Shown here in pieces: positions 27,771 to 49,300 of a stretch of DNA of 64,000 nt. Source of the stretch: an uncultured Planctomycetia bacterium (GTDB lineage Bacteria > Omnitrophota > Gorgyraeia > Gorgyraeales > Gorgyraeaceae); the NCBI GenBank assembly GCA_964415355.1, contig CAYPYS010000001.1, positions 215,399-279,398 of the forward strand, read 5' to 3'. The position numbers were made by a program, and so were the translations under genes. The notes beneath the pieces were generated by a model, which was given only the letters and a program-made list of their open reading frames with translations, ran no database searches and was not told where the DNA came from. The first letter of the stretch is position 1; the number at the start of each line of letters is the position of its first letter.

Positions 27771-28112
27771 TCAATTGGCTGCAAAAAGCCTTGACATGCC
27801 TTCGCCAAACTTAAGGCCAACGCCATCCTTCTCAACCCTTACAACCTCAGCCTCTCCTGTGAGTCGTGAAAAAGGAAAATCTCTTCTGTCGTCCTTAGGC
27901 ACTGATAAGTATATATTGAGCTTATCCTGGGGCTTGATATTCTTAATATCTATATTTATTACATATGCACCATGATAACTTAGGTTCAGAGTAAGCCCCT
28001 CTTGTGCCTCTCGCTTCTTATCGGCTGCGCCACGGTTAACGTTTACGGGAAGAGATAAATCTATCCTTTTAGACTGCCTCTTCTCCATAAAATCTCCAGC
28101 CCTCATCAACAC
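27771..28112 (-). CDS. PilZ domain protein (c-di-GMP binding)
   Basis: 113 aa. RQSKRIDLSLPVNV is an RxxxR-like motif. The ...TLNLSYHGAYV... beta-barrel and a downstream D.SxxG-like ...ISEGGV region follow. It is only 19 nt upstream of the SBP gene with no PIE between them. Confidence 0.6.
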   Translation of the reverse strand: MLMRAGDFMEKRQSKRIDLSLPVNVNRGAADKKREAQEGLTLNLSYHGAYVINIDIKNIKPQDKLNIYLSVPKDDRRDFPFSRLTGEAEVVRVEKDGVGLKFGEGMSRLFAAN

Positions 28113-28266: not shown

Positions 28267-28305
28267 TTAAGCATACACTTCAACATTGTTGAAGTGTATA
28301 CTTAA
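28267..28305. repeat. PIE copy 14, GCATAC/GTATAC variant (TTAAGCATACACTTCAACATTGTTGAAGTGTATACTTAA)
   Basis: Read directly. The giant-ORF stop TAA (28302-28304) lies in its right end. Confidence 0.9.
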
Positions 28306-31300
28306 GGGCACCAAGAAGCAGCTACAGGTGCTACCTCAGGATCTTCTGGGGGATTGATATTATTTCGCTCAGATTTAAAGAATTTAATAGTATGAATACC
28401 AGCGTATATTAAGAGAGCGATCAGAAAAATGATTAAAAGGGCAGTAATTGCTTCTGTGCCTGACGTTAGCGACGGTGAATGATTCTCGACATAACGGTGT
28501 AAGATTTGGTGAATATCAAAAAACGACATAAAGAACATGCTAAATCCGGATAGATAATCAAGCGTTTCTCTCTGCCCCAGAGAGCAAATTTCTAAAAACT
28601 CCTGTACATCATGAGTAGTATATTCATAACCATTATTCCCTACAGCATCTATTATCTCATCAATCCTAGGCTTTCTATCTAGCGCGAACTCTAATCTTTC
28701 AATCTCGTATTCAATTACAAGGCACAAATCAGCTGTATCAAACATTGGATCAAAAGCCCCATCTCTTTTACTATTTAACAAAACAAGCCTATCTCCATCT
28801 TTCGGAAACGGGCCATACTCCTGCCTTAGAGCTATAGCCTCGACAATAAAATAACGAATAGAAGACTTTAAATATGCCCTGAAAGAAGCTACTCGCACCT
28901 GATCTTTGAGTAAAAAGTAGAATAAATTAAAGTGACGACTTGCAAATATCAATTTATCCTCAGCCACTAAGCGTCTCATATCAGACCTAAATTTATGCAC
29001 GAATGGAAGATGAGCTTTGATCAATTCCTTGCTGACCTTACTTCTAATTGAACGACTTAGAGACAACAGTAAAATGCCAGATTCCATGCAATTTTTTTCT
29101 GTCCATTCTATATATGATCTGTCGCCTATCTGCTCCAAGAAAGATTCCAATCTTTCTTCATCTTCTGTAATCCTATCTGAAATATGCCTCTGTAGAGTTT
29201 TTGCTTCAGGTCTATCAAGAAAGATCTCACTCAATGCATAAAGAGAATTTTTATTAAGGCCTCTTAAAATAAGTCGCAATTTAATATGCAACTTGTCAGC
29301 TTCTGTGAGTAGCTGTGATAAATCTAATATTGGCAACGCGGCACTGCCGGCTAGCATATTTTGAAAACCAACCGTCACTTCTTCAGGATTTATTATAACC
29401 TTAGCAATCCAAGAATCAGATATCTCAAAATCAAAATCACTATTTTTAAATATTTCTACAGCTTTTGCATAATGTACAATTTCTTTTTCAGGACGACCGC
29501 TTCTTATGATTTTGGCAAGACAACTATCTTCTTCAATTCCCCTATTTCTTAACATGTTAATTAGCCTTAGAATCTCGACTTCGGAACGGCTGCTTTTTAT
29601 GATTTGAGCAATATGCACAGACCCTGTAACTCCTTTGTTTCCTTTTAGCTGTTCAATTAACCTTAAAATCTTATCTTCGGCACGACTAGAACCTATTATA
29701 TAAGCAATATGCGCACACTCTGCGATTTCTTTTGCCCGTAATGCGGTAATCAATCTTAAAATCTCATCCTCGGAACGCTTAGTGCTTATAATTTTAGCAA
29801 TATGCGCACCTTCTATAATACCTTTGTCTTCTAACTTGTCAATTAGGCTTAAGATCTCAGTTTCGGAACGCCTGCTTCTCATGATTTGAGCAATATGGGT
29901 AGTCTCTGTAATTCCATTCTCTTTTAGTACATTAATTACAGTCCAAATCTCATCTTCAGAACGACTACTACATATAATTAAAGCAACATGCGCACTCTCT
30001 GTAATCTCTTCTACTTTTAACTTGTCAATTAGGTTTAAGATTTTATCTCGAGAACGTTCGGTGTTTATAATTTTAGCAATATGCGTAAGTCCTGTGATTT
30101 CCTTTGCCCTCAGTGCAACAATTAGACTTAAAATATCATTTTCAGAACGACCACTTCTTATAATTTGAGCAATATGAGTACCTTCTATAATACCTTTGTC
30201 TTCTAGCTTGTCAATTAGTCTTGATATCTCATCTTTTGAACGCCTACTAGCTATGATCTGAGCAATATAAGCATTGTTTACAATTCCTTTTCTCCGAAGC
30301 ATCTCTATTACATCCAAAATCTTCTCTTCAGAACGACTGCTTCTCGCAATCATGGCAATATGCGCTCCTTTTGCAACCTTTCTTTCTTGCAATACATCAA
30401 CCAGGCTTAAAACATCCTCTTTAGAGCGCTTGTTACTTATTATTGTAAAAATTTGATAACTATTAAATAGGTAGCTATGATGTTGCGTTTCTCTTTTTCT
30501 CATAGTAATTAAAGCTTGCAAAGTGTCGAGCTTTATTTCAAGTCTTTGAAACCGTGAAATGCGCATAGCCCTCTCATTGTCAAACAGAAGCTTCCCGTCT
30601 CTTTTAATTCTACTAATAAATACCTGAATCTGAGGATTTATTTCGTTTCTTTCTTTCTCTGAATCAAACAGGAGTCTAATATTATTTATATTTTCCTCTA
30701 TCTGTGCTATCTCTCGAGACATCACAGATGAATGCGCCCTCTTAGGCGTCCCTGCAAAGGATGTCGTTGTCATGACAAAAAATACAAATCCATACACACC
30801 TGACATCACGAACATCTTAGAGATCGCTTCGTCTACTTGTAATAAATTGATAATAGCTCCTAAGCCTAAATATATAAGTACAGCAACTCCCAGGGCAATG
30901 AGAAGGTATCGTCGTTGGCGGGTTTCTTTGGCTGATTCCTTAGAAAGAAAGTCTAGTATCTCTTTAATATCTGCTTTGACTCCCTCAGGAACATTTGGTC
31001 CCGTATGCCAGCTTTTAACGATCATACCGGCTATCTCTCTATTTCTTTCTGCTTGTTCTCTGTTCTCTTCGGCGTGATTACGTAAAGATTCTGCTTGTCT
31101 GCGTCTCAGATCTGCCATTGAATAATCATTTTTCCTATCATATTCAAAAGCTTGTCTCTCTAATCTCTCAACTTCCTCATCTTGTTCTTTTGCCCTTTCC
31201 TCTAATTCTGCGGCCTTAGCTAAAAACTTTTCTACTTTTATAGAATTTCTCATGCGATACGCCGCACCTAACTCTCTTATTGCATCTTCAGTAGGCATTC

Positions 31301-34300
31301 TACGAGACAACCACCAGCTACGCAAACTAAAAACTATAAGCCAAACAAAAATTATAACTGCAACAATGGCAGAGACCATCTGCAATATCGAAAGCCACTG
31401 AATTATATCCGAAACTTCATAGCTGGAGAAATCTACAAACGGGGCAAAGGGTATAACTAGAGGAATATACTTAGTAATGTTTTCTCTTAAAGCCTCTATA
31501 ACATGTTCTTTATATCTCTCATAAGCATATTTAGGGGATATAGCTAAGTGCACCATTCTAACGCTGATGCCTTTTTTATCAAGAACACTAAAAATATGAT
31601 CAATTTCTCTTGCGATATTCTTAGAAGACGGTTTCTTCTTTTCTCTCTTTTTCCTCTTGTCCCTTCTTCCTTTAGGCCATTTTCTATTCGTAAAATAATC
31701 AAGGCAAAATGTTAACACTACTTGTCTTCTAATATTAGGCAACTCATTGACACTAGAGAAAATGCCTTCGAAATCCCTAAGGCCGAGCAAGCCATAATCC
31801 ATAATATCTAATCTGCTCCAAGACGGTCTAACCCACCAGATATTACAACCCTTGCGCCTAGCCCATACCACCCAGTTGGATTCATCTACCCTTGAAACCA
31901 AATTATGATCCGGATCATCTGAGTCATAATCAAATGCAATAACTGAATCACCGCCCCATAATAAATCCAATACTTTATCATGCGTATAAGTAACTTTTAA
32001 GTATTTCTCTTTTATTAAATAGCCACGTTTTCTTTTAAATATTATCCAATATAAAACAACTACAACAATAATCCAAAACACAATAGACCGAATATTTGAT
32101 AAACTCCCTCCACCAGAAGGCGAGCCAAACTGCAAGATCTCTGCGCTACTAAAACCCAAACCAAGCGTCGTTGCGCAAACATATGTAGCATCCTTTGTCT
32201 TGCGCCTCAGCCACTTTGCTACGTTGACTAAAGCTGCGCTTCCTATGATAATCGCCAAGGGGCTAAATTTTACCCGCCACATCAATCTACGACCAGCTCT
32301 TCTTTGCTCCTCTTCAAAATCCTCTATACCTAATTCCTCTTTATACCTCTCACCCTCTTGCTTCAGCTCTTCCATATGCTCTAATGCATTATATGCAGTC
32401 ACTGCATAGCCAAGATCTTCAGCATCGCAAAATCCCAGCTCTTCCATAACAATCCTCATGAAAACTCTCTTCATCGCATCCATCTTCAAATCCTCGTGCG
32501 TAATATCTCCTTTGATCCGAACTACCCGAATGCCTTCTAGAAATCCCCTGGCCTCTTCGTTTTCCGGAAGTCTTTCGAAAGCATCCGGATTTACCATGCC
32601 GTCTCCGAGCCCCCCGCTTCTCCCGCAGCCCAGGATACGCAAATCTTCAAAATCCAGAAACGGGAAGTCCTTATTTAACCAGTTGAATATCGCTGAATTA
32701 GATGAAGCTGCACATATAAGTGTGATATGAGGCAGGCCAGGATTATCTCTCTTTGCCTTATACATCCCCTCCTGCACCTCTTTTAAGAATTCGCTATCAT
32801 CGAGCGACTGCAGTAAGATTGTAAGATCTTCTTCAGGCGCCTCGCCTTCAAACCAGAACCATTTCTTTGATAGGCCCATAAGCCTCCAGAAAAGCGCCTG
32901 GCCCAAACCCTTCATCCATGTCGTGCCTAAAGTCGAAAGCCCATTTAAGGCAGGCGCGCCAAGCATAACCTCTGAAATCCTCTCGGCTATATGAGGATAC
33001 TGAGGCAGATCCTTGTACAGCGACCCTACGACAAGGCTCCCTATGCTTATGCCGAAAAGGACTATATCTCTATTTAACAAAAACGGGAAATCTAAAATCT
33101 CTTCTAAAAGTGGTATGATTTTTTCAATTTGGTTTTGTCCATACGTATACCTGCCTGCGTCAATATATCTATCCTTGTAGCAACCTATTGTTATGACTAT
33201 TGTTTCTTCCGCAAGTTCTCTCGCCCCTGAATGCGGATGCCATAAAACAAAATCTCCTTTTAGAGAAGGGTCCATGATTTCTTTTACCTTGACATTGCCC
33301 CAGGCAAAAAATTCAAGCGCACCATAGCCCGGGATATGTATGATGACTTTTTTATTACTATGCCCGCCGTTCATTTGTCCGACCGGGCCTCCTATGTGGA
33401 CCTCAAAAGAGCCGACATCCAACTGAATGATCTCTTGCCTAAACACCTTATCTCCCCTCACTCGCTCACCACTGCCTTCTATGCCATGAAACGGCATCTT
33501 CCATATCGCCAATTCTTCTTTAATAGAACTAAGGAGTTTTTTATTTCTTCTTTGGAGTTTCTTCTTTAGCTCCTCCAGCGCTTCTGCAGATTCTTTTGTG
33601 TATATATCTCCAAGGGCCTTTACAGCATCCATACGCTCTTCTGATCCCAGATCTCCCCGCAACACAATCTCTTTTAATTCATCTATGCGAGACGGCTCCC
33701 TGGCTTTGTGTGCTTTGTGCGTAAAAAAGTCTCTAAAGGTTTTCCAAATAACCAATAAAACCAATAGAGTTAAAAGATGTCTTGTCTCGCCGGGATTTTT
33801 TACGCGTAGACACGTGCAAGCTTCTTCTGCCTTTACATCATTACCAGCCTTGCCAAAACCATCGCCAAAATGACAAGCCTCCTCGACAAATCCATCTTCT
33901 CCGACCCTAACATCTAAATACTGCGCCAATAACCTGATCCCAATTGCTTTATTGCCAATATCTACGAATACGTCATGACTGCTACTAAAGGCAACAAAAG
34001 GCAAGGCGTGTTTTTTTCTTGCAGAATGTTTATTGACCCGTTCTGTAACTTCCAAAGCTATATATTCCAACAATGAACCAGCAACGCGTCCTTTCGGCAC
34101 CATGCCAACCGCCAGTTCTTTTCGAATTATTGTTGCCCCTACGCTTAATCTCTTTACGCTTTCTTCCAGCGCCTCTTGAGCAATATCCAATATCCTGCGA
34201 ACACTTCTTTTATCCCATCGCGTCTTGCCGCTCGGGTCCCATTCTTCTTTCGGAATCTCTTCTATGCGCCCTTCTCTATCTATCCTATACAAATAATTGC

Positions 34301-37300
34301 ACTGGCCTCCCATGATGTAAAACTTACCTATATCTTTTCTCTCAGGATAGTCAGGGAACACTTTCATCATCATGTCAATGATCCCCTGGAATTTTTGTCT
34401 ATATTTATGTGGCTCGTCAGGATGACTCAGCGCAGTCACAACAGCCACATTTATGCGAAACATCAATAGTATAACTATTAATGCCGCTAATAGGCCCTTT
34501 TTCAAAACACTGCCGCCCTGTTTATATAATGTGCCATCGCCGTCAAGAGTAACTAATTTTGGTCCTCTGGCAACAATTTTTCTCAATAGGAATTTCACTG
34601 TTGCCGCAAGAGGAGGCGAATGGAACATGCGGGCCAGGTATTTTAATATGCCGGATTTGTAGATAAGGTATGCGATTAGTAATAAAACAACGACTGTCAT
34701 TGCGAGAAGCAACAACGGCGAAGCAATCTCTAACTTTACATTCCAACGTTGTTGAAGTGTGAAGTTAAAGAGTAAAAACATAGGCATGGACATGGAGCTG
34801 CCTGGCCCATGAGTGTCTCTTTTTGTTCTCTCAGAAACCTTAAGCCTTTCGATAATATTTTTGCGTACCGAGTCAATGTCAAAACCACTCCCCGGGCCTT
34901 CTCCTATGAATCTTTCCACAAAATCGCCGCCCATCTCTTCAGTAGAAGGAGATTTCTTACCAAAACCCCCAGCCAACTCTGGCCCTATATGCGCCAATGC
35001 CTTCTTTTGATATGATGCAGCTTCTATCTTATCTGCATCTGGTACCAGACCTTTCATTGTCACATTATCTCTAGAATAGAAATAGAAATTGAATCCACCA
35101 GCCCATGGAGCGAGATAATATAAAACAATAATCTCCACATCCTTAAGACCCTCTGATTCACTTGACAAGTCTGTTAATACACTAAGTATCATGTCTGTAA
35201 CTACATTATGAGTGGGATGACCGTCTTCTCTATGCGGCATTATTACTACAAACTGCCCTTCTTCTCTAATAGCATCTTGATAGGCTTTTATAAATTCCTG
35301 AAACCTAATCTTCAATTTTCCAGCTGCTTCTATAAGTTCCTCACGGGATGGCATTACATCTGGGCTAGGTATATCAGGAATAATATTAAGATTCTCGACT
35401 ATTACAGCGCCTTCTCTCTCGCCAGATAAAACCACGCCGGCATTTCGCGCCTCCTCCCCTCTTATCTTTATTTTAAGGCTCTTTTCATCTACATGAGGCC
35501 TTGCCCTGTCTACATCATTCAAGATTATCCCTGCTTCGCCAGCGCTGAATACCATATTAATCATTATCACCTCATTCTCTGCGCCTGCTATAGCCATGCC
35601 ACCAGCTGCAATTTCCATGTCATCAGGGTGAGGCGAAGTAAAGATAAGCGGTATTCTTCTGGTTATTCTTATAGGGATAAATCCTTCGGGGGCCTTCTCT
35701 CCTTCAAATACAATAGCATGAGGCTGTTGTGAATCTGCGAGCACGCGTTCCCCATTTTTTATCCTGCCCACAACAAATGAATGAGCATATTCATAATCCA
35801 CTGCATCTCTTTCAGGAATCAATCCGTATCTTTTACCTAGCGTAGCAGCATGCTTCATGACCCAGTGAGTAATTTTTACATATTCGGTTCGGCGCGTCTG
35901 GCTTTTATGCTTACCGACAGCCTTTTTAACTCTATCTGCGATTTTTTTGCCAAAAGTGAAAACTAGGTTTACATATGAAGGATACTCAAAAGATTCATAA
36001 TAAAAGGTATATACATCCGGATAAACCTCGGCTCTATACTCTGTGACAAGCTCTCTGTTTTCTGGCGAATATGGCATCATAATAAAATCTGGCCTATAGT
36101 CGCCTAAAATATCTCCCAAGGCCTTTGCACTGTTTAATCTATACACCCTTATTTCGTTTCCATTAAGCCTTAATGCCTCAACAACATTACCGGCAAATAC
36201 CATATAATCATTTTCTACGACTTCAAACACTGCTACTTTCTTTCGTGCAGGCAATGGACATTTATTTATAGCCTCTGGTAAGTCAGGTTTATCGCTAAGA
36301 ATCACATTGCCGGATAGAGGAGACCAGTTTGACTCAGTATACCGAAGACAATTTAGATTTGCATTAATGTCATCTCTAAGACTCCTGACTTTCAAGACAA
36401 GAGATTCATCCTCTATGTTCCTCGCCATTGCCCCTAGAGTATCAAGTAGCGTTTTCTCTAAAGCAGGGAGCTCAGCAGGAATCCTCCCTGCATGGATAAA
36501 CGCAAAGAGTCTCTGAACACTTGAGGAGGGATAGGTTTTATTACGTTTCCGCAGGTCTTCTTCTAGAGACTGCCAGATTTGTTCGCAGTCCTGTTCCTTA
36601 AATACTCCTATAGCTTTTCCAGTCTCAAAAGTCAGCTGAACCGCTTCAAGGGCTTTGGGGTATAATGGACTCTCGGGATCAAGTACCATCCCTACCCAAA
36701 GTTCTTCAATCCTACGCAACAAACCATCTTCTTTAAAAAGATTGGCAAGCGGCACGACATTGACTGCCATAGTAACCATGGCCTTCACCCACTCATGCCA
36801 AATTGAATCAGCATTCTTGCCTGCATCCTCTGGAATGATTGCAGGATAATCTCTTTCTTCAAGGATTTCTTTAACGCGCCTTCGCTGAGCAATGTTATTA
36901 ATGCCCAGTCCTGCTGCTGCCAGAATAACCTTACCCTTCTTGCCTGGTATATAGACCATTGTCGGAACACCGTCTATTTCTCGCTCTTCTCTCCTGCCAG
37001 ATTGTCCTACAATTCCCCGAATCACGCATCCAGCAATGGATGTTTTGGTCTCATCAGACAATGTCTTTAACTGCTTTGAAGCACAGATTCTTTTAAATAA
37101 AGTATCAATAAACTCCTTATAATAAATCCCATTGCTCAAAAGAATAAACTTTGGTACCAATAGTTGAACGTCACCTTCGATCGCAAAATATCCCTGCCCT
37201 GCCATCACTTCTAAGAGCTCTACTAGTTCGTCCATGAAGCTCGTTAGTATCTTATCTGTATGCGGCGCAACAAAGACAACATCAGGGAGATGTCTGCTGC

Positions 37301-40300
37301 TAGAGGCCTCAGTGAGAGAAATTGATGCTCTATCCACAGTAATTTTCTGAATTTCGCCATCAACTTCAAGATATAATCCGCGTACTGGCCCGTTTAGTTG
37401 CTCAGCGCTCCTGCTTCCCTCCTGAACAATGATTACATCTGCCTTAGCATGATAAAACATAGCTATGTTCAGAGCACCGATTGGGTAAACACCTATAATA
37501 GTCCCGGTGCTACTATTTCCGGCCTGCTGTTTCTGCTCAGTAAAATAACCGAACAACTCATTGCTACTAAGCATAACCCCAGTAATAAAGCCTTGGCCGA
37601 GCCCAAAGAAATCCCCACCAGCCACGGATGAGGTGATTCCCAGCGAAGCCCACCCGGGCCATATTGCTATTCTTAAAACCTGCATAAGTGCAAAAATTAC
37701 AAAAGCTATCCAAAGAATATGCTCAATGATCTTTAAAGCACTGTTAATCTTCTGAAGACGAATTATCCTTTGAGACCTCGGTAGAACTATAGCTCCTCCG
37801 TCTGGCATTTCAATCAATCTGGACTGCACTTCATTCCAAAATTCCTTATACACATAAGCCCCGAACCTGATTCTTGCAATGCTAAATACAAAGAAACACA
37901 ACCCCAACCCTTGTCCTAATTCGGATGAAAGACCAAAAAACCCTCCTGCTTCTCGCCCTAACAGCCTTAGAAAAACAAATTTTCCTATGATTATAAATAA
38001 GTCCGCTATATTCGTCCAACCTCCAAAACCAAAGGGGATATAGTCACGATTATATTTATATACAATTTCTTCCCAGAAATTTGAAAACCAACTGCCTAAC
38101 ATTAAACCAAATAAAGCTAGATAAAAATTTGAAAATAATCCAAAGATTTGACTCTGGATAGCAATTTTCCATATAAATACGCCTAAGGTTATAAATACTA
38201 GTGCTGCGCTTAAAAAAGTCCTTAAAGGATTTTCTAAACGTGGGGTTTTAATTCCCCAGTCTTTCTTATCTGCTATGTAGCCAGCTACCCTCGCTATCAG
38301 AAACCCGACCAAAACAGACATGCCAATAACAATAAGCGGTGGTGCAGTCTCCCATAAAAAGTAGTGTAACTTTTCAAGCATATCAAATCCTGTCCTTGAA
38401 GACAGGTTTAATCTTGAAATCAAGGACAGGTTGCCAGCTGAAATAGCAAATGGTACAAGCAACAAGGCGTTGTTTTTCTGTTTTAAACTAAAAAAGATAT
38501 AATAAAAAAGCGAGACTAACATACTGGTGGCCAAGATTAAACCCCATATCAGCAACGTAGAATCAGATTGTATGGCTACCCATGTAACAGCCCATCGATA
38601 ATATAACCAATACGTCACTAGCATAGGCCCGACTGTAAGTATTAGTGCTCGCGCCATAGTTTTGCCTCGATCAGGGAAGAAAGAATTCTCAGACCAAAAA
38701 GCTCGTCTAAGCGACTTCGCTGCTATGGCCGTAGGTATAAAAACTGCTATGATGAGCCAACCAGCCATGGGAAGAGACAATAAACCTCTATAAATTGCTA
38801 AGGTAAAAGCCGTCAAACTAAACACGACCAAGGTATGTTTCTTACGCTGCGTATTATTAAACCACGCTTCATCATGTTCGCACCATCCGCTATAAGCTTG
38901 AATTTTTTGTCCCGAAATTTGTAACCATCTCCATGAAATTGTCAACATAAGGACAATTATTGGCAAGACAAGGATAACTAGTAGGTCAAATTCTGACAAG
39001 CCATATACCGCGCCATACAAAATCGTACCGGTCCCGAGCATCAAGATAACCAGGATAAAGATCAATACAAAAGATCTCCAGCCTAAAGATATCCAGCGCG
39101 GGACCTTTGATGCGTATTGTTCGTAATCACTTCCAAACTTATCTTTTAAATAACTCTCTTCTTTTATCGACTCTTTTTTAACAGACGAGCTAGTTTGAAG
39201 CGCCACGAATAATCCTGATATTAACGCGATTATCCAGGTAAGGGTCTTAGCATCCATTGGATAGAATAGCGTTGCAATAATAGAGGTTATAAAGCTAGAG
39301 AAAATTATAACATAACTAATGTATATGGGATTTCTGGTCCATCTGTAAGGGCCTTTGGCAACAAGGGCATCGGGGTAAATTTCACAACGAGTAATGATAA
39401 GATGTGGATCTATATATAGGTGTGCGTAATTGAGGAAAATACAGCTGGCAACTAAAATGCTTGCCGGCCAAAGCAAGATAGGATCGATAAGACCTAGAAT
39501 AAAGGCAAAAATTACAGAAACAAGCAACTGTCTTTGTTCGCACTTAAGATACCGCCATAGACGTATAAGGGCATAAGCAGAAATACCTAAAATGACAGCA
39601 ATCAGTTTTATGTTCACCTCTGGCGGTGGCTGATTCTCGACAAAGTGCCGTAAATTTTCAAGGATATTGAGCTGACTAAATCTGTCATTGCGAGCAATGA
39701 CAGATGGAGACACCTTAGCAAACAAGGAAACGCCTAACATGAAGCTTGAATTATCCTGATCGGATATGAGGGTGATTGCCGCAAGATTTGCCAGAGGGTG
39801 AGAGGCAATAAGGCTATGCTGTATGCGCAATGGTTCAGGATCAGCTTTAATAAGTCCCAGCTTTATAGCTAGTTCTACAGTCTCAAGACGTTTTTGAAGT
39901 CTGATAGTAGGTTTCACAGCCCGTCCCAAATGAGATAGTCCTAGATGTTCTCTTGCATTACTAAAGGTTATGCTAACATTGGACTGCGGGATAGATATCC
40001 TCTTGGAAATCTCTTTATTTGTCAGCCCTTGAGCCATAAGGGTTAATATTTCTTTTTCCCTATCAGTAAGCTGAGACATCTTTACAAGCTTTTTAAGTGG
40101 CTCAGGATCAGCTTTAATAAGTCCCAGCTTTATAGCTTCTTCAACAGTCTCAAGACGTTTTTTAAGTCGTGCAAGCAAGTTTCCCCATCCCAAAGGAGAT
40201 AGCCCTAGATGTTCCCTAGCACTTCGATAGAGTGCATTAATATTTGGCACTGTAGTAGAAAGCTTCTCAGCGATCTCTTCAATTGTCAATCCTTGAGCCA

Positions 40301-43300
40301 TAAGAATCAATATCTCTTTTTCTCTATCAGTAAGCTGAGACATCTTTACAAGCTTTTTAAGTGGCTCTGGGTCAGCTTTAATAAGTCCCAGCTTTATAGC
40401 CCGATTAACAGTCTCAAGACGTTTTTTAAGTCGCGTAGCCAAACTCTTACCATGTCCCAAAAGAGGTAGTCCTAGATGTCCTCTGGCGCCTCGATAGCGT
40501 GCATTAATATTTGGCACTGTAGTAGAAAGTTTCTCAGCGATATCTTCGATTGTCAATCCTTGAGCCATAAGGATCAATACCTCTTTTTGCCTCTCACTTA
40601 GACGAGGTGTATTGATAAGCTCTCTAAGTGATTTAGGATCAGCTTCAATAAGTCCCAGTTTTATAGCCCGCTCTACAGTCTCAAGATATTTTCTAAGCTG
40701 CATAACCAAGGTCTTGCCACGTCCCAAAGGAGGCAATCCTAAATGTTTTCTGGCATTACTAAAGGTTATGCTAACATTGGACTGAGAAATAGAAAATTTC
40801 TCAGCGATCTCTTCGATTATCAGTCCTTGAGCCATAAGAATCAATATCTCTTTTTCTCTATCAGTAAGCTGAGACATCTTTGCAAGCTTTCTAAGTGGCT
40901 CAGGATCAGCTTTAATAAGTCCCAGCTTTATAGCCCGCTCCACAGTCTCAAGACGTTTTTTAAGCCTGATAACATGGCTCACGCTTTTTCCTAAATGAGA
41001 TAGCCCTAGATGTTCTCTGGCGCGTTGATAGTGTTCATGAATAGTGTCTATATTAATAGCGATTTCTTCAGCGATCCTTTTATTCGTCAGTCCTTGAGCC
41101 ATAAAAGTTAATACCTCTTTTTCCCTCTTACTTAGACGAGGTGTATTGATAAGCTCTCTAAGTGATTTAGGATCAGCTTCAATAAGTCCCAGTTTTATAG
41201 CCCGCTCTACAGTCTCAAGATATTTTCTAAGCTGCATAACCAAGGTCTTGCCACGTCCCAAAGGAGGCAATCCTAAATGTTTTCTGGCATTACTAAAGGT
41301 TATGCTAACATTGGACTGAGAAATAGAAAGTTTCTCAGCAATTTCTTTATTCCTCAGCCCTTGAGCCATAAGGGCTAATACCTCTTTTTCCCTGTCAGTA
41401 AGCTGAGACATCTTTACAAGCTTTCTAAGTGGTTCAGGGTCAGCTTTAATAAGTCCCAGCTTTATAGCTAGTTCTACAGTCTCAAGACGTTTTTTAAGCC
41501 TGGTAGCAGGTCTAACAGCTGGTCCCAAATGATCTAGCCCCAGATGTTTTCTGGCGTTTCCATAGATTACATGAATATTGGAAGAGGAAACAAGAGAGAA
41601 AGTCTTAGCAATCTCTTTATCTGTTAACCCTTGAGCCATAAGGATCAATACCTCTTTCTCTCTATCAGTAAGCTGAGACATCTTTACAAGCTTTCTAAGT
41701 GGTTCAGGGTCAGCTTCAATAAGTCCCAGCTTTATAGCCCGCTCTACAGTCTCAAGACGTTTTTTAAGTTGTACAAGCAAGTTCCCGCGTCCAAAATGAG
41801 TCCGCCCTAAAAGATGTTTGTGGGTATTCCGGAAGATTTGACCAACATTACCCTTGGTAATAGAAAGCTCTTTAGCGATCTCTTCATCCCTCAGCCCTTG
41901 AGCCATAAGGGTCAAGATCTCTTTTCTTCTTGGAGACAAGTAAGGTGGATTTATAATTTGCCTCAATAGCCTGACATCAGCATCAATCAATCCGCGCTCT
42001 ATGGCTTGGTTTAATCCATAATCAGTTGAATAGGCTCTGTCCAGGGCCTGCCTAAACGCGATATCTATATCCTGGGTATGTTCAAGGCCTGATCGCTGTA
42101 AGGCCTTTACCCATATGAGAAATGCGTACAAAAACTCTCCGCCTTTTAGTTCTTCAAATGCATCCGTAACATCCCCATAGCTTTGTCCTATAAGTCTGCC
42201 CTTCCACGCCTTCATCAAGTTAACTACATCTTCTTCCATCTCCTCTGTTTTTATTGAAAATATAATCGCATTCCTCAGCTTATTAATTAACTGATCACTC
42301 AATGCTTTCCAGCGCTGGCGCTTCATGTGCCAGAAATCATCCGAACAATCAAGAATCTCATCCCAGCCGTCAAACCTAACAAATGCCCTACAAAATAGCC
42401 TGAGAAGCGATTCTGTTTCAGTATCGGCGGAAAGAATTCCCTCAGGCACAGAACTTGAACTAACAACAAGATCCGCATATTGGTCGTGTCCGTCCATTGG
42501 CAGATCTTTAACTATCTGTTCCGGAAAGGCTACGGCCACCTTAAAGGCCTCCGGCATCTCTTCAAGAAGCCTGTCATAATATCCGCCTCCTCTTCCAAGG
42601 CGCTTCCCCTCCCTTGTGAACAGAAGCCCTGGGACAAGGATCAGGTCAGGGGCCCCACAAAACAACTCGCACGATTCTTTGGGCTGCAAAATGTCATACG
42701 GACCGGTCTCCAGATTTTCTCCAAGATTCTGTATTATACGAAATAGGAGAGCATGCGTTTCATCTTCTTTATCTACGCAGGGAAGGGCTACGGTTTTACC
42801 CTGTTCGAGAGCTTCTTCAATTAAGGGGACAATTTGTGGTTCAAGAGGCATAGGATAATACAGAAATACCACTTTTGTTTTCTCCCAGCGCTGCTGAAAC
42901 AACTGGTGTTCTTCCAAGGCTTTAAAAAGAGATTCGTTTCTTTGAATTGCTGCTCTTTTATCGAGCTTTCTTAAGCGCTTCTTCGCCATCGCCCTCAGCT
43001 GCTCTTTTTGCTCGTGAATATTAAGTTTCTTTCCTTTTTTAATAGCTATTACTACCGCTATGATTGCAAATGAAGAAACTGCCTGCGAGTGTAAGACGAA
43101 CTGCTTTAAAAAACGCAATGATATAAAGTCATAGAATTTCAGCAAAATAAATACAAAAATAATCCCCAATATTATACGAAAGATAAGATTCCTAATAGTA
43201 TTTCCTTGAGCAACCACTATATCGTCTTCCTGGTAACCTGCTTTCTTAAGATTTTCAACCGCTCGACCTTTTATCCTCTTCATTTCTCTTAAACCCAATG

Positions 43301-46300
43301 CGCTTTTGATGATAAGAGCCGCGCTCAAAATTAGAAATATTGAAAAAGCTATCGATATAAATAGAAATCTTCTATATATATCCTGAATAAAAACGGCCCG
43401 GGCAAGCCCAAAGAAATCCCCACCAGCCACGCCCCGTACGAAATCTCCGATTTGCGTACGGGGCACGGTTGAAGCGATCCCCAAAGTAGCCCACCCGGGC
43501 ACAAATACCTTTGTCATTGCGAGGCCAAAGAGCGCAGTGACTCTTGTAGAAGTTTTCTTATCCGCAATGAGGCCACCTTTAATATCTTTATAAGAGAAAG
43601 CAGCGGCAGCCGCCGCTACAACTCTATTTCCCACCTCAAGTTTCCTTAAAATAGATGACACATTATTCATGGCAGGCGCTCTTCCTTCTCCAATGCCTAA
43701 TACTTCTGTTATCTCCCTATTGCTTAGGCCTTTCATTACTAATTGCAAGACTTCTTTTTCTCTGCCGCTGAGTTCATCAAAACCTTTCTCGCGATAAAAA
43801 GCATCATCTAACCTTATCAGCCCTTTTCTAATGGCTATTACCACTGCTTCTATTTTATTTGCTGCTTGTAGTTTTTTAAGAATAGGCTTTCTGTGTTTTA
43901 ACCCAAATGACTTATATCCTAGAGCAAGCGCCATTTCCTTATCAGAAAGGCCTTGCGCAAGAAGCAAAAGAATTATTCCTTGAAACACTGTCAACCTTGT
44001 TTTAAAAATCTCTTCGGTCGCAATCGAAAGGTTCCCGACAGATATCGTCTCAGCTTGACTACTAGCTCTCCCATCTGAATCCACATGCCTGCTAACATCA
44101 GGGAGAAATAAAACCTCGGCTACGCTGCAAGAAATGCGGCATAAGAAACCAATGCCCAAAGGAGTCCTGATGTATTTCCATATATAAGAAAGAAGTTGCG
44201 TTAGTTCATCTATAGCCTCTTGACATGGATTTAAATAAAGCTCCTCAACCGAAATCGAACTGAGCCCATAGGCCTTTGTAGCGGCATTTTTAAACCGTTT
44301 TATGTTATCCAGAACTTTTTGCAATAATGAGCTTATGCACGCTAATTGCAGCGGCGACTCTTTTATCTCTGTTTCTATAAATAATAAACAATCTAATAAA
44401 CTATTTAAAAGTTCCTTTGTTTCCCATAGGGTTTTCTTTTTTAATGTCCTCCTTCCGCGCCCGGATCCATTCTCATCCACGAATTCAAATAAGGCATTGA
44501 TTTTTATTCTTGCGATTGAAAAAGCAGTAATGATCTTGGTAAAATGAGGCCCCGCGCTCCCAGGAATTCCCGAAATATCATATGCTTTTACCCAACCAGG
44601 CGCAGGAGACCTTAAAAACTCCTCTGTTGCGTCGATCCATTTTCTATAGTAATCAAAAGCAGCATCCTTCACCAGGTCTATAGAGCGTGACGATAGAGGA
44701 AAATCTTTTTCTGTCAATACATTGCCTCTTTTAAAGTATCTTATGCGGATCGCATCTTCGCCCCAATATAAATCAACCACCTTCTCCGAAGTAGGCAGCC
44801 AGACTAAGACAGCATATTTTGTCACCCCGCCTATAAATAAACGACGCAGAGCCAAACCTTCCCTTAAAATAACCTGGGCAGATCTGGCTTCTGAATCTTT
44901 CACCGTAGCCTTTGTGCTCAAGAAACGAATTTTAGCCCCATTAATCCATATGCTTCTATGTGTTTCGCCGATAAAAGTCTCTTCCAAAACTGCAGGATAT
45001 GCCCTATCTAAATCCATATCAAGAATCAGGCCAACAAGATAATCTTGCAGTTTCATGCTATATTTATACACAGGCACCTCTTCCTTAATACCAATAATGC
45101 CCATATCGCGGCCATCTACGATAACATGCCTTTTCCCATTTTTAAAAGGGAACTCTAGACTACAAACCAGCTCGCAAACATCTTCCTTATACGCAACAAT
45201 CTCAGCCGATACTAGCTGCTTTGCTCCTGCCTTTTTATATACAAGTTTCCAAATTACCTTAAACCTTTCCATTCCCGGAAGAGAAAGCATATTGGAAGGC
45301 GCGACCCTTAAACACAAGCCCTCTAAGCCCGCACGTCCTCTTGCATCAAGGTCAGCTTCCTGATAGCCGATTAACCCCTCTTCCAAAAGCGATGGCACGC
45401 TTGCGATAGCCGGAGCAAATGCCATTGAAGCCAAAAATGGAACTACATTTCCTCTTATAGCCTCCCAGAATACAATACACCCATAGACTAACAAAGACGT
45501 CATGAGTAAGAAAAGCACAAGAAATAGCCAGCCTCTATACTTAAGCTTGCTAATATAGGCCTTATAGGCCTTGCCTTCTGGTGTTTTATGCGCTCCTAAA
45601 AATAAAATAGCTATAAATTCCGGGTATAGCCTGCCCAATAACGACAATAAACCAAGCATGCTAAACCAGGCCACAGCTATTCCAGCTACCCCCCATGCTG
45701 CCTGAAGCGCCAGGGTATATGGTAAAATAAATATTGATATTAAAAACGTAAGGAAATAGCTTCCAACCCCCCAATATAAAACAGCAAATGCAAAATGTTC
45801 CAATCTCCCATGCCTAAACATACGAATTCCAAACGATATAATATAAAAAATTAAAATTGCAAGCAAAATCATAGTAAACCAAATTCCCGGTTTGTCAAAA
45901 AGCGCGATCAATTTATCTATATCCGGATCCGGCGGGCCGTTTTCCCATAGAGAATAACGCAGGATTTCCTGGATGCTGGAGAATGAAACCCACAATGCCG
46001 CCAGAGAAAAATTTAAATTCGAACCTGATGAGTCTTGCTTGCCAATGCGGTCGTCAACTGACGTAGTCAGTATTTCCAAACATTCATCTTTAAGCATAAG
46101 TTTGGTTAAAGATGGTATTATTTTCTCAAAATCGCTTATAATGCGATTTGCCGTATCTACCTGTTCATCTGTAGCTACTCTCTCTCCATCAAACTCCCAA
46201 TGCTCTACTCCCCATGACCAATATCTTAAGAATACCCAGAAGTATATAATGACAAAAATCGGCTGGATAGCAACACTGGGTTCATAGTCTGAAAATATAG

Positions 46301-49300
46301 GTATCCATATACCGTTAAAATGTGATTTCAATCTAAAATAATCTAAAGAACAAAAACTGCTTATTGTGCTGTGACTTCTGCTCCCACCCCTAACCCATTG
46401 CTCAAGAAGCCAATCAGCCCCGTCTTCCTGCGCTTCGACTGACAGATACACTCGTATTGGCTCATCCTTCCTATTTCTAAACTCTAACCCACATGCCATA
46501 TCTTTTTCTGCTTCTCTACTAAGATAGTTTTCGATTTGCTTTAAAGCTACATCGGAATCGCCAACAATACCAAGCTTTTCCTTTAGTGCGCGCATCAGAC
46601 CTCTTGCAACTATGGGTTCATATGAGTAAAAGAAAAGTTTTGCTACATGCGCCATGAACTCTGATTCTAAAGTTTCCTCAAAAATATCAAAAGGATAAAT
46701 TTGTAAACCTATCTCATCAAATACACGCGTCAATATGCCATTCTTGACTTCAGCAAAGCCTCTTTCGATCCTTATTTCTTTTCTACCCTGCCATAGTATT
46801 TGACCGGCTAAGAAAAAGCCACCATTTGGACCTGTTGCAGCATTCTCAATGACGCCGTCAGGATGTTCCTCTAATACTCGCCCGGGCATTACAAATGGAT
46901 ACGCTTTCACAAACCTGCCTTCTACGCGCCTTGCCAACCCATCCACTATCTCTATCTTCGCGCCTGACCATAAAGCATTCCTAGAATCAGGACCATTATG
47001 ATAAAGATGAGTGCCAACTGCGCCATATATATCGGTACACCTATAATCCTCGAATACTATAATGCCATTATTTACTTTTATATTATGGGCCCACGCCAGG
47101 GCGCCTACGCCCCCTCTTCCAGTTTTAACCTCATTATTCGAATCTGAAGAGATCCCTGTTATCACGCAATAGCCTTTTTTGCCATACCTATCGAGAAAAT
47201 CTCCTGGTACCATGCCTGGAAAGGCATTTATAAAAGTACCCTCTACCAGCTTCCCATCCTCTATTACCGCATCCACAAATAGCGCATTTTTTCCTTCTGG
47301 GCCAATATCGCGGATCAATTCTCCTGTTGCATTATAGACCTTTGTTACACGCCCTTCTTTATCATCTGAGTTTACCTTTTCTACTCGCAGCATTAGTCCT
47401 TCCTCATTCTCATGTCCTTTCCACTTATCCCACCATGGCTTTACTAAATAAAGGCCTCCTCTATTATTCAACTTTGCATCGAGCACCACACAATCAGGGT
47501 AACGTTCAAATAAATCTCCTGGCACACGAGGAGGAAACGTCCCTACAAAAGTACCTCCGACTAACTGACCGTCTACTATAGTGCCTCCATCATATATAGC
47601 ATTTATTCCTTCACCTCTGCGATAACTGCGGATATCTCCTTCGTCTCCTTCTAGCATTACCATCGATATAAACATTAAACAAAATTCCTGACTAGGCAAC
47701 AATCCTTGCGTCATTGTGAGTGCCGTAAAAATAATGCCCAAGAGCAAGGTGAGATTATTTTGGTCGAATTCAGGAGGTTTATTAAATAACGCCATGATTA
47801 CTATGGCGACAGAGGCTATTAGCAGAAATACATCTGCCAGGTTCGCCACATCAAAACCTAGAATAACTATCCAATTTACAACATAGCCTGTAGTTAATTT
47901 TTCTGTAATGTTACCCAAAGTGCCTCCTGCTAAGATACCGAGCATAGCTAGCATAAAAGGCCAGGCTTTTGTATTTTTCCAGTGCAAGAGAAACCATAGG
48001 ATAAGAGAGAACATTAGAGTAGTTAGAATAATAGTAAAAAATACATTCTCATTATCTTTTATAACTTGTATATGCGTAAGCTGAATAACTTGTCCAAATA
48101 ATGGTGTCTTAAGAAGGCTTTTAATGATATCTACATAAGAAAGCCCCTGCTCTGATAGCACATCAAGCTGTGCAGCCGTAAGTGCAACGGGAATATTCAA
48201 CTTAACCCACAGCTTAGTGCCAATATCTATCGCAAAGGCAAGGCATGCTGCAATAAACGCCATCAACCTGCGTCTATGCTGTTTAAGCCATGACCATAGA
48301 AATGGAAAGATAATAATAGGAGCTTGAGAAGCAAACCTTACGCTGGACCTGAACATCGCGATAGGGTTAAAATTTATACGTGAACTATGCAAGAAAACTA
48401 TTTCTCCTCCCACAGATTGATATAATATAAAACATCCTTTAAAGAATAAGGAAAACATGAGACTCAAAATCCCGCACCAAAAAATAAACTTCCATTGAAG
48501 CCCAGTATTTTCCATTCCTGATATATCCAAAGAATATGCCTGTCTGTCCAGTGCATCTGTAAACTGTGCCAGCATTCTAGAGCACTCTGAATATGACGCA
48601 GCCATACCAAACCAGCCCAATACAATTATGTAGATACCCTGCGCTGCCTGAATAGCTAAATTTTGCGGCAATATAAGGCTCGATACAAAATATACCGCTA
48701 AATAACTCAAAGCGCTTTCTAATAAAGTCACGATCAAGAATCGCCGGAGTGACCAGCCTTGCTTTGCCCCGCGAATCCCAGAGAATACAATATAAGTAAT
48801 TAAAGTTGCAAGTAAACCCATAGTAAACCAAACTTCTATGTTGTCAAAAAGTCTGAATTCATGCGCAACCGACAAACATTTTTCTAAGCTCCCACTTTGA
48901 CATTGTTGAAGCGCAAGCTTAATGTTATCAGATAAAAGCGCAACTGGTGCAAGAAATAGGCCATATAATGGAGCTTTCTCTTGTTTTCTTGCTGAAGCAC
49001 ACGAAAAAATTGGTCTGTCAAAGTATAATAAATACACCAGAAAAACAAAAAACCCTACTATTTCCCCGGATATCATGCCGATGAAATCCAAAGGATCTTT
49101 TACCCTGCCAGCTATCCCTCCTAGAAAGTCTTTTGACCTATAGAATTCTAACCATAAGAAAATAAAAATAAACACAACAAACAAACCTGCTAATTTTATA
49201 ACAAGCTGTAATAGCGGCCTGTTATTTTGTGAAGGCCTGTCAAAAAACAAATAACCCATTATAAAAACAATTCCAGTCAGGCCAATAGAAATCCCATAAT

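Follow-up and report, generated by a model that had tools for sequence, protein, structure and literature searches.

Apparently intact PIG-L/LmbE and ISN1-type enzyme modules in a giant membrane mosaic protein of Candidatus Omnitrophota

Introduction

The giant proteins of Omnitrophota (Archaeovorin-like; 10.1101/2023.11.21.568195, 10.64898/2026.06.07.730766) exceed 10,000 aa and carry dozens of TM helices, and unrelated cytosolic-type enzyme domains (GNAT, HAD-type, signal-peptidase-II) tile a single polypeptide with internal duplications, encoded next to T2SS and carbohydrate-import genes. Nielsen & Lui 2026 (10.64898/2026.06.07.730766) described among them the architecture class 'multi-enzyme metabolic cluster'. 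Two enzyme families are also relevant here. The PIG-L/LmbE (CE14) enzymes, including Dac (3WE7, 4XM2, 8BGN), TT1542, BshB and MshB, carry PHPDD and HPxH motifs, and the ISN1 nucleotidases (PF06437; 6RMD, 8J6H), which combine a HAD catalytic domain with a C2 cap, are described as a eukaryote-only family (PMC7320144). Here we describe a giant protein that houses modules of both families, and propose as its probable nature a membrane-tethered mosaic of two intact enzymes and a third module, brought together by shuffling and acting separately.

Results

A giant Omnitrophota membrane protein hosts all the modules

The window (the whole 64,000-nucleotide stretch that was analysed) contains a single giant ORF, taken from the ORF list and its translation, that hosts all of the modules.

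28302..63917, minus strand: giant ORF (11,871 aa, 35.6 kb)
42462..43007, minus strand: 5-formyltetrahydrofolate (5-FTHF) cyclo-ligase module (aa 6971-7152; Pfam PF01812, E 1.2e-36)

The genome is that of a Candidatus Omnitrophota bacterium, and the product is a mosaic protein that is polytopic in the membrane. A Kyte-Doolittle scan found ~75 TM-like hydrophobic segments along the protein, which also contains three PF01252 (LspA-like signal-peptidase-II) domains. The gene is flanked by genes for a sugar ABC importer, ROK, GH2-like, porin, RND, T2SS F and pseudopilin proteins, a neighbourhood that matches the giant-gene contexts reported by West-Roberts et al. 2023 (10.1101/2023.11.21.568195). 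The protein belongs to the known 'multi-enzyme metabolic cluster' class and shares with the described giants all of the traits listed above, the Omnitrophota taxon included. It differs from them in lying at the small end of their size range (11.9 kAA), in having at least 13 LuxR-type HTH units, and in that no SecA-DEAD, C39/S8 peptidase, HEAT-array or dockerin domain was found in it; its PIG-L, ISN1 and 5-FTHF cyclo-ligase modules are absent from the main text of both preprints.

A first-pass annotation had proposed a cluster of soluble hydrolase modules in the C-terminal third of this protein. All of the motifs that it quoted are present in the giant ORF frame, and the PIG-L and HAD modules do lie towards the C-terminus of a genuine giant ORF. 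The annotation had also named a GNAT and a 5-FTHF cyclo-ligase: the latter is well matched, with GRGGGYYDR at aa 7108 (nt 42596), while the GNAT is weak and falls below its cutoff (20.5 bits vs 20.7).

The PIG-L/LmbE unit

The deacetylase domain was recognised correctly and scores 45.9 bits in Pfam (cutoff 28.2); it is, however, half of a larger conserved unit that begins ~220 aa upstream of where the module had been placed.

34908..36311, minus strand: two-domain unit (aa 9203-9670); N-terminal half Rossmann-like and lacking catalytic motifs, C-terminal half a PIG-L/LmbE domain
35181..35642, minus strand: PIG-L (PF02585) catalytic core (aa 9426-9579; Pfam E 9.9e-12)

Profile searches of the PDB matched the unit to Dac (E 1.4e-11) as well as TT1542, BshB and MshB, and with the AF2 model (pLDDT 83.6) the top 34 Foldseek matches were all of the LmbE family. 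PHPDD (aa 9429, nt 35633) and HPTHN (aa 9567, nt 35219) line up with the PHPDD and HPDH motifs of both TT1542 and Dac, and P-H-x-D-D and D-x-H-x-x-H are invariant in an alignment of nine family members. H9430, D9433 and H9570 are predicted to bind zinc and D9432 to serve as the general base; H9567 supplies the first His of the HPxH motif. With these zinc ligands, the catalytic Asp and the R..E helix motif of CE14 enzymes kept, the module looks like a catalytically intact PIG-L/LmbE-type deacetylase, its His-Asp-His metal site complete.

The unit also departs from the CE14 enzymes. It forms part of a giant membrane protein, shares only 14-21% sequence identity with the solved members, and carries a long inserted helical segment that separates strand 3 from the HPxH strand. 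PIG-L domains of this type invariably follow a ~200-aa non-catalytic Rossmann-like domain, and it is this N-terminal domain that instead holds the H-x-S-Q motif known from canonical members; the two halves show no significant profile similarity to each other (hhalign E 0.05). Homologues of the unit also occur as stand-alone proteins of 490-704 aa. The best of these, L002 (704 aa), places a NagB-like domain ahead of this two-domain unit, a layout like that of the PRK02122-type NagB-LmbE fusions ('glucosamine-6-phosphate deaminase-like protein'). The window protein differs in this respect: the region upstream of the unit (aa 8753-9200) gave no matches and no detectable NagB domain, and NF002557 matched the unit only at E 0.065.

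De-N-acetylation of a GlcNAc-type sugar is the most likely activity of the unit: diacetylchitobiose deacetylases are among its closest solved relatives, its best stand-alone homologue carries a fused NagB-type GlcN-6-P deaminase, and the sugar ABC importer, ROK protein and GH2-like hydrolases adjoin the gene. The reaction would use a zinc-activated water, with the Asp as general base.

The ISN1-type nucleotidase module

The HAD phosphatase-like module proposed by the annotation was confirmed and could be sharpened to the ISN1 type, with the Asp nucleophile and all four HAD motifs intact and almost every IMP-binding residue kept.

34659..34715, minus strand: strongly hydrophobic helix (aa 9735-9753; Kyte-Doolittle score 2.85), separating the PIG-L unit from the ISN1 module
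33771..34565, minus strand: ISN1-type HAD module (aa 9785-10049), catalytic domain and C2 cap, Pfam PF06437
33735..33779, minus strand: short hydrophobic segment HLLTLLVLLVIWKTF (aa 10047-10061) that follows the ISN1 module

The Pfam match (E 1.8e-50; 172.5 bits against a cutoff of 25) covers profile positions 145-407 of 407, and the PDB matches are PfISN1 (6RMD, E 2.7e-36) and yeast ISN1 (8J6H, E 1e-26); over ~285 aa the module is ~33-40% identical to the family. DGDGT (aa 9792, nt 34544) and GDGFGKAGND (aa 10018-10027) both lie in the giant ORF frame. Residue roles were assigned from the PfISN1 study (PMC7320144), and in the alignment with PfISN1 the module keeps 13 of the 17 functionally probed residues. 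Equivalents are present in motif I (D9792, D9794; Pf D170, D172), motif II (T9828, A9829, S9831; Pf T204, A205, S207), motif III (K9990; Pf K371) and motif IV (D10019, F10021, N10026, D10027; Pf D394, F396, N401, D402). In the base/ribose site (D9982, F9984, D9986), the ribose 2'-OH-binding D363 and the base-binding D367 are kept and Pf W365 is F, a tolerated change that retains an aromatic base-stacking residue. By contrast, the 3'-OH-binding Asp is replaced by Gln (D178->Q), and Q395->G and H398->K are also changed. The module thus looks like a catalytically intact ISN1 IMP-specific 5'-nucleotidase catalytic and cap module; it most likely hydrolyses IMP or a related purine/pyridine mononucleotide, in which case a phospho-aspartyl intermediate would form on D9792.

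Unlike PfISN1, the module lacks the N-terminal regulatory (NTRD) and oligomerisation (OD) domains (Pf residues 1-143). The helix at aa 9735-9753 occupies their place, with PfISN1 homology starting ~10 aa past it, so that, in contrast to eukaryotic ISN1, the module is tethered N-terminally via a TM helix. A PfISN1-style tetramer with ATP regulation is therefore unlikely, and the enzyme, anchored in the membrane, would work constitutively and without forming a tetramer. Removing the N-terminal 59 residues of PfISN1 strongly impairs it (PMC7320144), and the window module might therefore be weakly active or differently regulated. The hydrophobic stretch at aa 9809-9827 is, from the PfISN1 alignment, part of the ISN1 Rossmannoid core rather than a TM helix, while HLLTLLVLLVIWKTF may be one. 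The description of the modules as soluble thus holds in that they are globular, but they are separated by TM-like helices (aa 9735-9753 and ~10047-10061).

All the named homologues found for the module are eukaryotic, whereas its host is bacterial. The module is probably of eukaryotic origin ultimately, and it places in a bacterial protein a nucleotidase type so far reported from eukaryotes only.

The GISIG module

The third module is conserved and 470 aa long.

32277..33686, minus strand: GISIG module (aa 10078-10547)

It had been annotated as an alpha/beta hydrolase within 33800-35660; the GISIG meant is at aa 10289 (nt ~33053), outside that interval, and a second GISIG (aa 4875) lies inside a TM segment. 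GxSxG occurs four times in the giant protein vs 3.5 expected by chance. We found no Pfam, NCBIfam or PDB sequence match to the module, even at E<=10, and hhalign gave no support for an alpha/beta-hydrolase. The AF2 model (pLDDT 39.5) is unusable, and Foldseek returned weak matches only (E>=4e-3), mostly DPP4, CE7 and other esterases. With the motif at chance frequency and neither profile nor fold support, the alpha/beta-hydrolase assignment was not sustained. The module is 34-41% identical to residues 986-1462 of Omnitrophica PIQ87974.1 (P0002), which has AESTA at the GISIG position, so that the glycines of GxSxG are not kept, and which conserves GDGM and HED. The candidate residues S10291, D10439 and H10474 are conserved in both sequences, in the canonical nucleophile-acid-His order of alpha/beta hydrolases. 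Further likenesses to that fold are a small-x-Ser-x-small elbow after a hydrophobic strand and an H-x-P-G motif at a possible oxyanion-loop place. The GISIG module may be a serine hydrolase.

Module order and alternative readings

Module co-occurrence was assessed among the best 150 of 540 matches from 1.84 billion representative proteins. Within this set, the giant protein alone contains more than one of the three modules (PIG-L, ISN1, GISIG), and a search of related loci found no co-occurrence. Large homologues found by BLAST each have one module in common with the giant protein, and the neighbouring domains differ (LpxC-WbqC-GNAT-module-EamA vs methyltransferase-aminotransferase-PIG-L vs NagB-PIG-L). 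The modules look as if domain shuffling had recruited each of them independently, and would act co-localised but separately, not as sequential steps of a pathway.

Of the alternatives, the one that survives best, itself unlikely, is a polyprotein cut by proteases after insertion (e.g. by its own three LspA-like domains) into anchored or released separate enzymes. The presence of the PF01252 domains in the same ORF, the hydrophobic helices bounding the modules, the stand-alone PIG-L homologues, and the post-translational cleavage proposed for Omnitrophota giant proteins (10.1101/2023.11.21.568195) favour it, but no lipobox-type Cys was found in the sequence after the module-flanking helices, and such cleavage is compatible with our preferred mosaic rather than exclusive of it.

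Somewhat more doubtful is that the modules face outwards onto prey or host material, with PIG-L acting on cell-wall glycan and ISN1 as an ecto-nucleotidase; if true, ISN1 would supply a host-dependent bacterium with importable nucleosides made from released nucleotides. Omnitrophota are reported to be predatory or episymbiotic with partial biosynthesis, earlier TMHMM-based work (10.1101/2023.11.21.568195) predicted most giant-protein domains to be extracellular, and single TM-like helices between modules would put neighbours on opposite membrane sides. However, positive-inside charge counts around these helices are mutually contradictory, and the same polypeptide has domains that require ATP, acetyl-CoA or DNA (5-FTHF cyclo-ligase, GNAT, LuxR HTH). 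To our knowledge, the characterised relatives (Dac, MshB, BshB, ISN1) are all cytosolic enzymes. The 2026 catalogue (10.64898/2026.06.07.730766) also favours the cytoplasmic face for TM-helix proteins without a signal peptide.

We consider it improbable that the modules have lost catalysis and persist as relics or scaffolds that retain motifs by chance, or that GISIG is coincidental and the third module no hydrolase. The GISIG findings, the lack of the NTRD and OD needed for full PfISN1 activity (PMC7320144), and the N-terminal half of the PIG-L unit, devoid of catalytic motifs, point that way. Against it, the PIG-L metal-binding and catalytic residues are all invariant across homologues at ~30% identity, the 13 probed ISN1 residues are kept at ~35% overall identity, and Ser, Asp and His persist in order in both GISIG-module sequences. 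Coincidence and loss of catalytic residues, which the first-pass annotation had itself raised, fail for PIG-L and HAD, whose motifs are far beyond chance; coincidence may apply to the GxSxG motif of the third module.

Least probable of all is the fused assembly line that the annotation had favoured, in which PIG-L, HAD, alpha/beta hydrolase, GNAT and 5-FTHF cyclo-ligase would work stepwise on one glycan/lipid substrate: sugar-related domains do occur in these giants (PIG-L here; LpxC, WbqC and GNAT in P0002) and sugar import and hydrolase genes adjoin the ORF, but the comparison of module order that the annotation had suggested went against it, since no homologue examined preserves the order or the co-occurrence of the modules and each recurs alone elsewhere, domain profile searches found no carrier, condensation or docking domains in the giant protein, thousands of residues, with TM bundles and at least 13 HTH domains, separate the modules that the annotation had combined, the alpha/beta hydrolase is unsupported, and the glycan/lipid theme is broken by the folate chemistry of the cyclo-ligase and the nucleotide chemistry of the HAD module, which keeps the base-stacking and ribose-binding residues of an IMP nucleotidase.

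Conservation of the locus

A diverged orthologue of the giant ORF was looked for and none was found, while its last 9.4 kb (C-terminal) is 100% identical at the nucleotide level in four independent assemblies. Next to the ORF, the ABC permease falls in a cluster at ≥90% identity that includes an NCBI Candidatus Omnitrophota protein.

Modules of the giant ORF and its genomic context

All of the motifs under study lie in a single uninterrupted minus-strand ORF (28302..63917, 11,871 aa; nt = 63917 - 3(aa - 1)), in which 33800-35660 corresponds to aa 9420-10040, and every motif quoted in the first-pass annotation was recovered in frame in its translation. A hydrophobicity scan marked ~75 TM-like segments along the protein. 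The Pfam matches, obtained by scanning the complete protein in overlapping chunks, are listed below together with the neighboring genes.

Pfam matches in the giant protein and genes near it
aa 41-80: GNAT, weak (20.5 bits against a cutoff of 20.7)
aa 6971-7152: 5-formyl-THF cyclo-ligase (E 1.2e-36)
aa 9426-9579: PIG-L/LmbE, CE14 (PF02585; 45.9 bits against a gathering cutoff of 28.2, E 9.9e-12)
aa 9785-10049: ISN1 (PF06437; 172.5 bits against a cutoff of 25, E 1.8e-50, profile positions 145-407 of 407)
aa 10050-11250: no Pfam match
giant protein, several sites: at least 13 LuxR/GerE HTH units
giant protein, three sites: signal-peptidase-II-like domains
giant protein: PEMT/ICMT, weak match
27771-28112, minus strand: small PilZ ORF between the giant ORF and the sugar ABC solute-binding protein, conserved in 4 of 4 related contigs
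downstream, same strand: sugar ABC importer (solute-binding protein and two permeases)
downstream, same strand: GH2/GH72-like proteins
downstream, same strand: porin-like protein
downstream, same strand: ROK protein with HTH
downstream, same strand: TolC/HlyD/2xAcrB efflux set
downstream, same strand: T2SS protein F and pseudopilin

The 5-formyl-THF cyclo-ligase of the first-pass annotation is borne out by a strong match, and its GNAT module is present but weak, scoring below the cutoff. The PIG-L and HAD motifs are not chance occurrences, because they are parts of strong profile matches. TM-rich, multi-enzyme giant ORFs adjoining T2SS and carbohydrate-import genes have been described for Omnitrophota (10.1101/2023.11.21.568195; 10.64898/2026.06.07.730766), and the present ORF, which exceeds 10 kAA (the class has ≥10 kAA), carries many TM helices and many enzyme Pfams, comes from that taxon and has T2SS and sugar-import neighbors, fits their ‘multi-enzyme metabolic cluster’ class. 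At ≥90% identity, the neighboring ABC permease clusters with a protein that NCBI assigns to ‘Candidatus Omnitrophota bacterium’. An object of this kind is already known; the new detail is a two-domain PIG-L unit, a truncated bacterial ISN1 core and an unnamed 470-aa module, and the ISN1 observation is the sole part surprising to a specialist.

The giant ORF is not an assembly artefact, because four metagenome assemblies, made independently from different samples, carry its C-terminal 9.4 kb without a single nucleotide difference. Since the four covering contigs are 100% identical and offer no diverged orthologue, dN/dS is undefined for this part. These contigs (L001, L033, L034 and L036; up to 9.4 kb identical to 28302-37750) come from ENA SUTE22-1 SAMN10231904, SAMN10231903 and SAMN10231893 and from JGI 3300009374, which indicates one clonal population, repeatedly sampled.

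A two-domain PIG-L unit with a complete active site

We searched 1.84 billion representatives exhaustively with HMMER, using aa 9380-10559 as the query, and then used BLAST. Homology to other proteins reaches well upstream of the Pfam PIG-L domain, and what is conserved is an entire unit of ~470 aa (aa 9203-9670). Eight other proteins contain this unit, some of them large fragments (1,566-5,403 aa) and some stand-alone (492-630 aa), and it is also present in GTDB genomes, Omnitrophota and Planctomycetales MAGs among them. Of the stand-alone homologues from genomes, the best is a 704-aa protein of an unclassified bacterial MAG (locus L002, 9224-11338), in which a NagB-like GlcN-6-P deaminase domain precedes the two-domain PIG-L unit; its gene has PBP2/MreBC genes on one side and tRNA synthetase and SecA genes on the other.

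In the nine-sequence alignment (~30% identity) the invariant columns include P-H-x-D-D and D-x-H-x-x-H, which in the window protein comprise H9430, D9432, D9433, D9565, H9567 and H9570. This site aligns with PHPDD and HPDH of TT1542 and of diacetylchitobiose deacetylase (Dac), and by that alignment the six residues would be the LmbE metal ligands and the catalytic Asp and His. From the literature on MshB, BshB and Dac we take the zinc ligands to be His, Asp and His and the general base to be Asp. Against the PDB, the top match of the unit’s profile was the Thermococcales diacetylchitobiose deacetylase (E 1.4e-11), followed by TT1542, BshB, LnmX, BC1534, GalB and MshB. An AlphaFold2 model built from the nine-sequence alignment was confident (pLDDT 83.6, pTM 0.86) and predicts the Rossmann-like fold of LmbE; the top 34 PDB hits in Foldseek were all of the LmbE family. 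The PIG-L/LmbE deacetylase proposed in the first-pass annotation therefore stands, with its family, active site and predicted fold in agreement.

The similarity to Dac, the NagB fusion in the L002 protein and the adjacent sugar importer and ROK protein together point to amino-sugar de-N-acetylation. The unit would hydrolyze the N-acetyl group of a GlcNAc-type sugar by means of a zinc-activated water, with D9432 as the predicted general base.

The first ~200 aa of the unit are a distinct alpha/beta domain that lacks the catalytic motifs. Its ‘HKSQ..RT’ motif aligns weakly with the C-terminal H-x-S-Q of canonical PIG-L proteins, and these alignments, together with inspection, suggest a degenerate duplicated PIG-L domain; we treat this as a lead and not as a result, because hhalign found no significant similarity between the N- and the C-terminal half (E 0.05).

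The last TM bundle is followed by 448 aa (36318-37661, aa 8753-9200) that lead up to the PIG-L unit and for which Pfam, NCBIfam and the PDB gave no match at E ≤ 10. The stretch looks soluble and, by eye, starts with a Rossmann-like GxGxxG-type sequence. The equivalent position in the L002 protein holds the NagB domain.

The HAD-type module is an ISN1 core

The DGDGT module had been annotated as HAD phosphatase-like. All four HAD motifs are indeed present, but the module belongs specifically to the ISN1 family of IMP-specific 5'-nucleotidases, and a generic HAD phosphatase was rejected on the Pfam match and on a phmmer search of PDB sequences, in which ~285 residues aligned with PfISN1, the P. 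falciparum enzyme (E 2.7e-36), and with yeast Isn1 (E 1e-26). We mapped the functional residues of PfISN1 reported by Carrique et al. (PMC7320144) onto the window alignment.

Functional residues of PfISN1 and their equivalents in the window protein
Nucleophile, motif I: D170, D9792
Second Asp of motif I: D172, D9794
Motif II: T204/A205/S207, T9828/A9829/S9831
Ribose and base contacts: D363/D367, D9982/D9986
Base stacking: W365, F9984
Motif III: K371, K9990
Motif IV: D394/F396/N401/D402, D10019/F10021/N10026/D10027

The four HAD motifs (D9792-G-D9794-G-T, T9828, K9990 and D10019...N10026-D10027) are kept, as is the IMP-recognition set (D9982, F9984, D9986, A9829 and S9831). The W365F mutant of PfISN1 is active (PMC7320144). 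Four other residues differ from PfISN1 (D178 to Q, R218 to K, Q395 to G and H398 to K), and the D178V mutant of PfISN1 showed only a mild effect (PMC7320144). Checking the catalytic residues, as the first-pass annotation had proposed, thus found both the PIG-L and the ISN1 sites complete on alignment. A possible TM helix at aa 9809-9827, within the module, was discarded; this segment aligns to a core helix and strand of PfISN1.

The match covers the catalytic and C2-cap domains alone, starting at about residue 138 of PfISN1. In PfISN1 the regulatory and oligomerization domains occupy residues 1-143 and are the basis of the tetramer and of ATP activation (PMC7320144). The window module, in contrast to the eukaryotic enzymes, lacks these N-terminal domains and has a strongly hydrophobic helix (aa 9735-9753) in their place, and BLAST of the 1,090 aa upstream of the module against 75 ISN1 N-terminal regions found nothing similar (E > 0.5). 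We infer that the substrate of the module would be IMP or another, related mononucleotide, hydrolyzed by way of a phospho-aspartyl intermediate at D9792, and that the module would not depend on an ATP-regulated tetramer as found in the eukaryotic enzymes.

Distribution and origin of the ISN1 module

ISN1 ‘is present only in eukaryotes’ (PMC7320144). The host of the present module is Candidatus Omnitrophota, not a eukaryote, and an ISN1 core in a bacterium contradicts this distribution. About 139 of the best 150 representative hits (of 540) were ISN1 proteins, with 29-43% identity, and every ISN1 homologue found here that carries a name is eukaryotic, including those of green and red algae, moss, Rhodelphis, fungi, an ichthyosporean, an apicomplexan and a diatom. 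One unnamed top match lies on a contig that also has a SNARE gene. Short ‘prokaryote-like’ hits starting at DxDxT were rejected, as they proved to be eukaryotic genes whose calls were split or truncated.

The module is in frame and has no introns. A foreign composition was rejected, since its GC content (0.431) resembles that of its neighbors (0.414 and 0.445). It lies about as far from each eukaryotic group as the more distant of these groups lie from each other. A eukaryote-to-bacterium origin appears plausible. As a tentative reading, which we regard as possible rather than probable, the bacterium may have taken the catalytic core of the eukaryote-only ISN1, minus its regulatory and oligomerization domains, and welded it by a TM segment into the giant protein, beside a chitobiose-deacetylase-like unit and adjoining a sugar importer. 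If true, no prokaryotic ISN1 would precede it, and a domain would have passed from a eukaryote to Omnitrophota; nucleotides and amino sugars from host or prey could be processed on such a platform.

The GISIG module is conserved and possibly a serine hydrolase

The alpha/beta hydrolase of the first-pass annotation, assigned to 33800-35660 on a GISIG motif, was not confirmed. The copy in question is at aa 10289 (nt ~33053), beyond that interval, and GxSxG occurs in the giant protein at chance frequency (4 observed, 3.5 expected from its size and composition). The surrounding aa 10078-10547 have no Pfam match at E ≤ 10 and none in NCBIfam, and searches of the module and its core against the PDB (phmmer, hmmsearch) returned only noise, even at E 10. 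An hhalign comparison of its profile with B. subtilis LipA gave a probability of 0.15%. The AlphaFold2 model, built from two sequences, was unusable (pLDDT 39.5), and Foldseek with this model gave only weak hits (E ≥ 4e-3, TM ~0.25), mostly to the alpha/beta-hydrolase-containing DPP4, CE7 and esterases.

The region is nevertheless a real conserved module, with 34-41% identity to residues 986-1462 of an Omnitrophica protein (P0002, PIQ87974.1), which is its only homologue among the best 150 of 540 hits from the 1.84 billion representatives; a metagenome scan found no further relatives. G-I-S-I-G aligns with A-E-S-T-A of P0002, with the Ser kept, and S10291, D10439 (GDGM) and H10474 (HED) are common to both sequences (n=2). 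Their Ser/Asp/His order is that in which alpha/beta hydrolases have their nucleophile, acid and His, and there is an H-x-P-G after an earlier strand. On these residues, a serine hydrolase is possible but unproven.

Independently recruited modules rather than an assembly line

The first-pass annotation likened the giant protein to a fused multi-enzyme assembly line. Among the best 150 of 540 hits from the 1.84 billion representatives, more than one module was matched only by the giant protein itself, and in BLAST each of the large hits had one module in common with it, set among differing neighbor domains.

Domain layouts of proteins sharing one module with the giant protein
P0002 (large Omnitrophica homologue): LpxC-WbqC-GNAT-[GISIG module]-EamA
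P0098 (large homologue): methyltransferase-aminotransferase V-PIG-L
P0102 (large homologue): methyltransferase-PIG-L
L002 (704-aa protein): NagB-PIG-L

No ISN1 or GISIG module was found in the related loci. The 11,871 aa contain no carrier (PP-binding), condensation/KS or adenylation/AT Pfams, and the protein has neither the features of an NRPS/PKS-type assembly line nor a conserved module order. The chemistries of the modules, amino-sugar deacetylation, IMP hydrolysis and folate salvage, are mutually unrelated. The assembly-line reading thus fails on module order, the check proposed in the first-pass annotation, on the single shared module per homologue and on chemistry. A better description is a toolbox tethered to the membrane, whose parts were recruited independently of one another, a pattern previously reported for Omnitrophota giant proteins (10.1101/2023.11.21.568195; 10.64898/2026.06.07.730766). 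As to the side of the membrane, positive-inside counts around the modules gave contradictory orientations, and the cofactors that the sister domains need favor the cytoplasmic face, a placement also proposed by the 2026 catalogue (10.64898/2026.06.07.730766).

Taken together, alignments and models place complete predicted active sites in two modules and assign their families and folds with confidence. For giant-gene biology, this means that at least two modules of the mosaic keep complete active sites and recur independently in other proteins, which speaks for a membrane-tethered, ‘shuffled’ toolbox rather than for an ordered pathway. In enzymology, ISN1 has been studied as an antimalarial target and as a yeast NAD/purine-salvage target, and a core that lacks the regulatory and oligomerization domains is a natural minimal version of it. 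Annotation could define two new families, since both the ~470-aa unit of pseudo-domain and PIG-L domain and the GISIG module of 470 aa are conserved and unnamed.

Additional features of the giant ORF and its neighborhood

The LuxR/GerE-type HTH units are sited at 39825-42014 (aa 7302-8031), 60858-61694 (aa 742-1020), aa ~3186 and aa ~6640-6760. Eight are arranged in tandem as ~89-aa repeats, 50-65% identical among themselves; these DNA-binding-type units thus lie within a polytopic membrane protein. The LspA-like (PF01252) membrane domains lie at 51924-52367 (aa 3851-3998, E 9e-8), 47784-48248 (aa 5224-5378, E 5e-9) and 37971-38207 (aa 8571-8649, E 4e-5), and could be relevant to self-processing of a polyprotein.

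TM-rich internal duplications, 42-59% identical, pair aa 2837-3173 with 4710-5057, 4152-4397 with 8063-8319, 1140-1316 with 6757-6944 and 3837-4025 with 5211-5399, and one of them carries the weak PEMT/ICMT-like matches. The region of the modules (aa 9200-10560) has no internal paralogue in the giant ORF. Near the C-terminus, about ten ~34-aa repeats, ‘HIAQIIRSxRSExEILxLIxxLxxKGI’ (29475-30527, aa 11131-11481), gave weak MarR, RPA_C and GvpJ-like matches and nothing stronger. Farther along, an AcrB-type RND transporter (8634-12437, minus strand, 1,267 aa) carries a C-terminal DeoR-type HTH (~8679-8813, E 5e-7), an unusual fusion.
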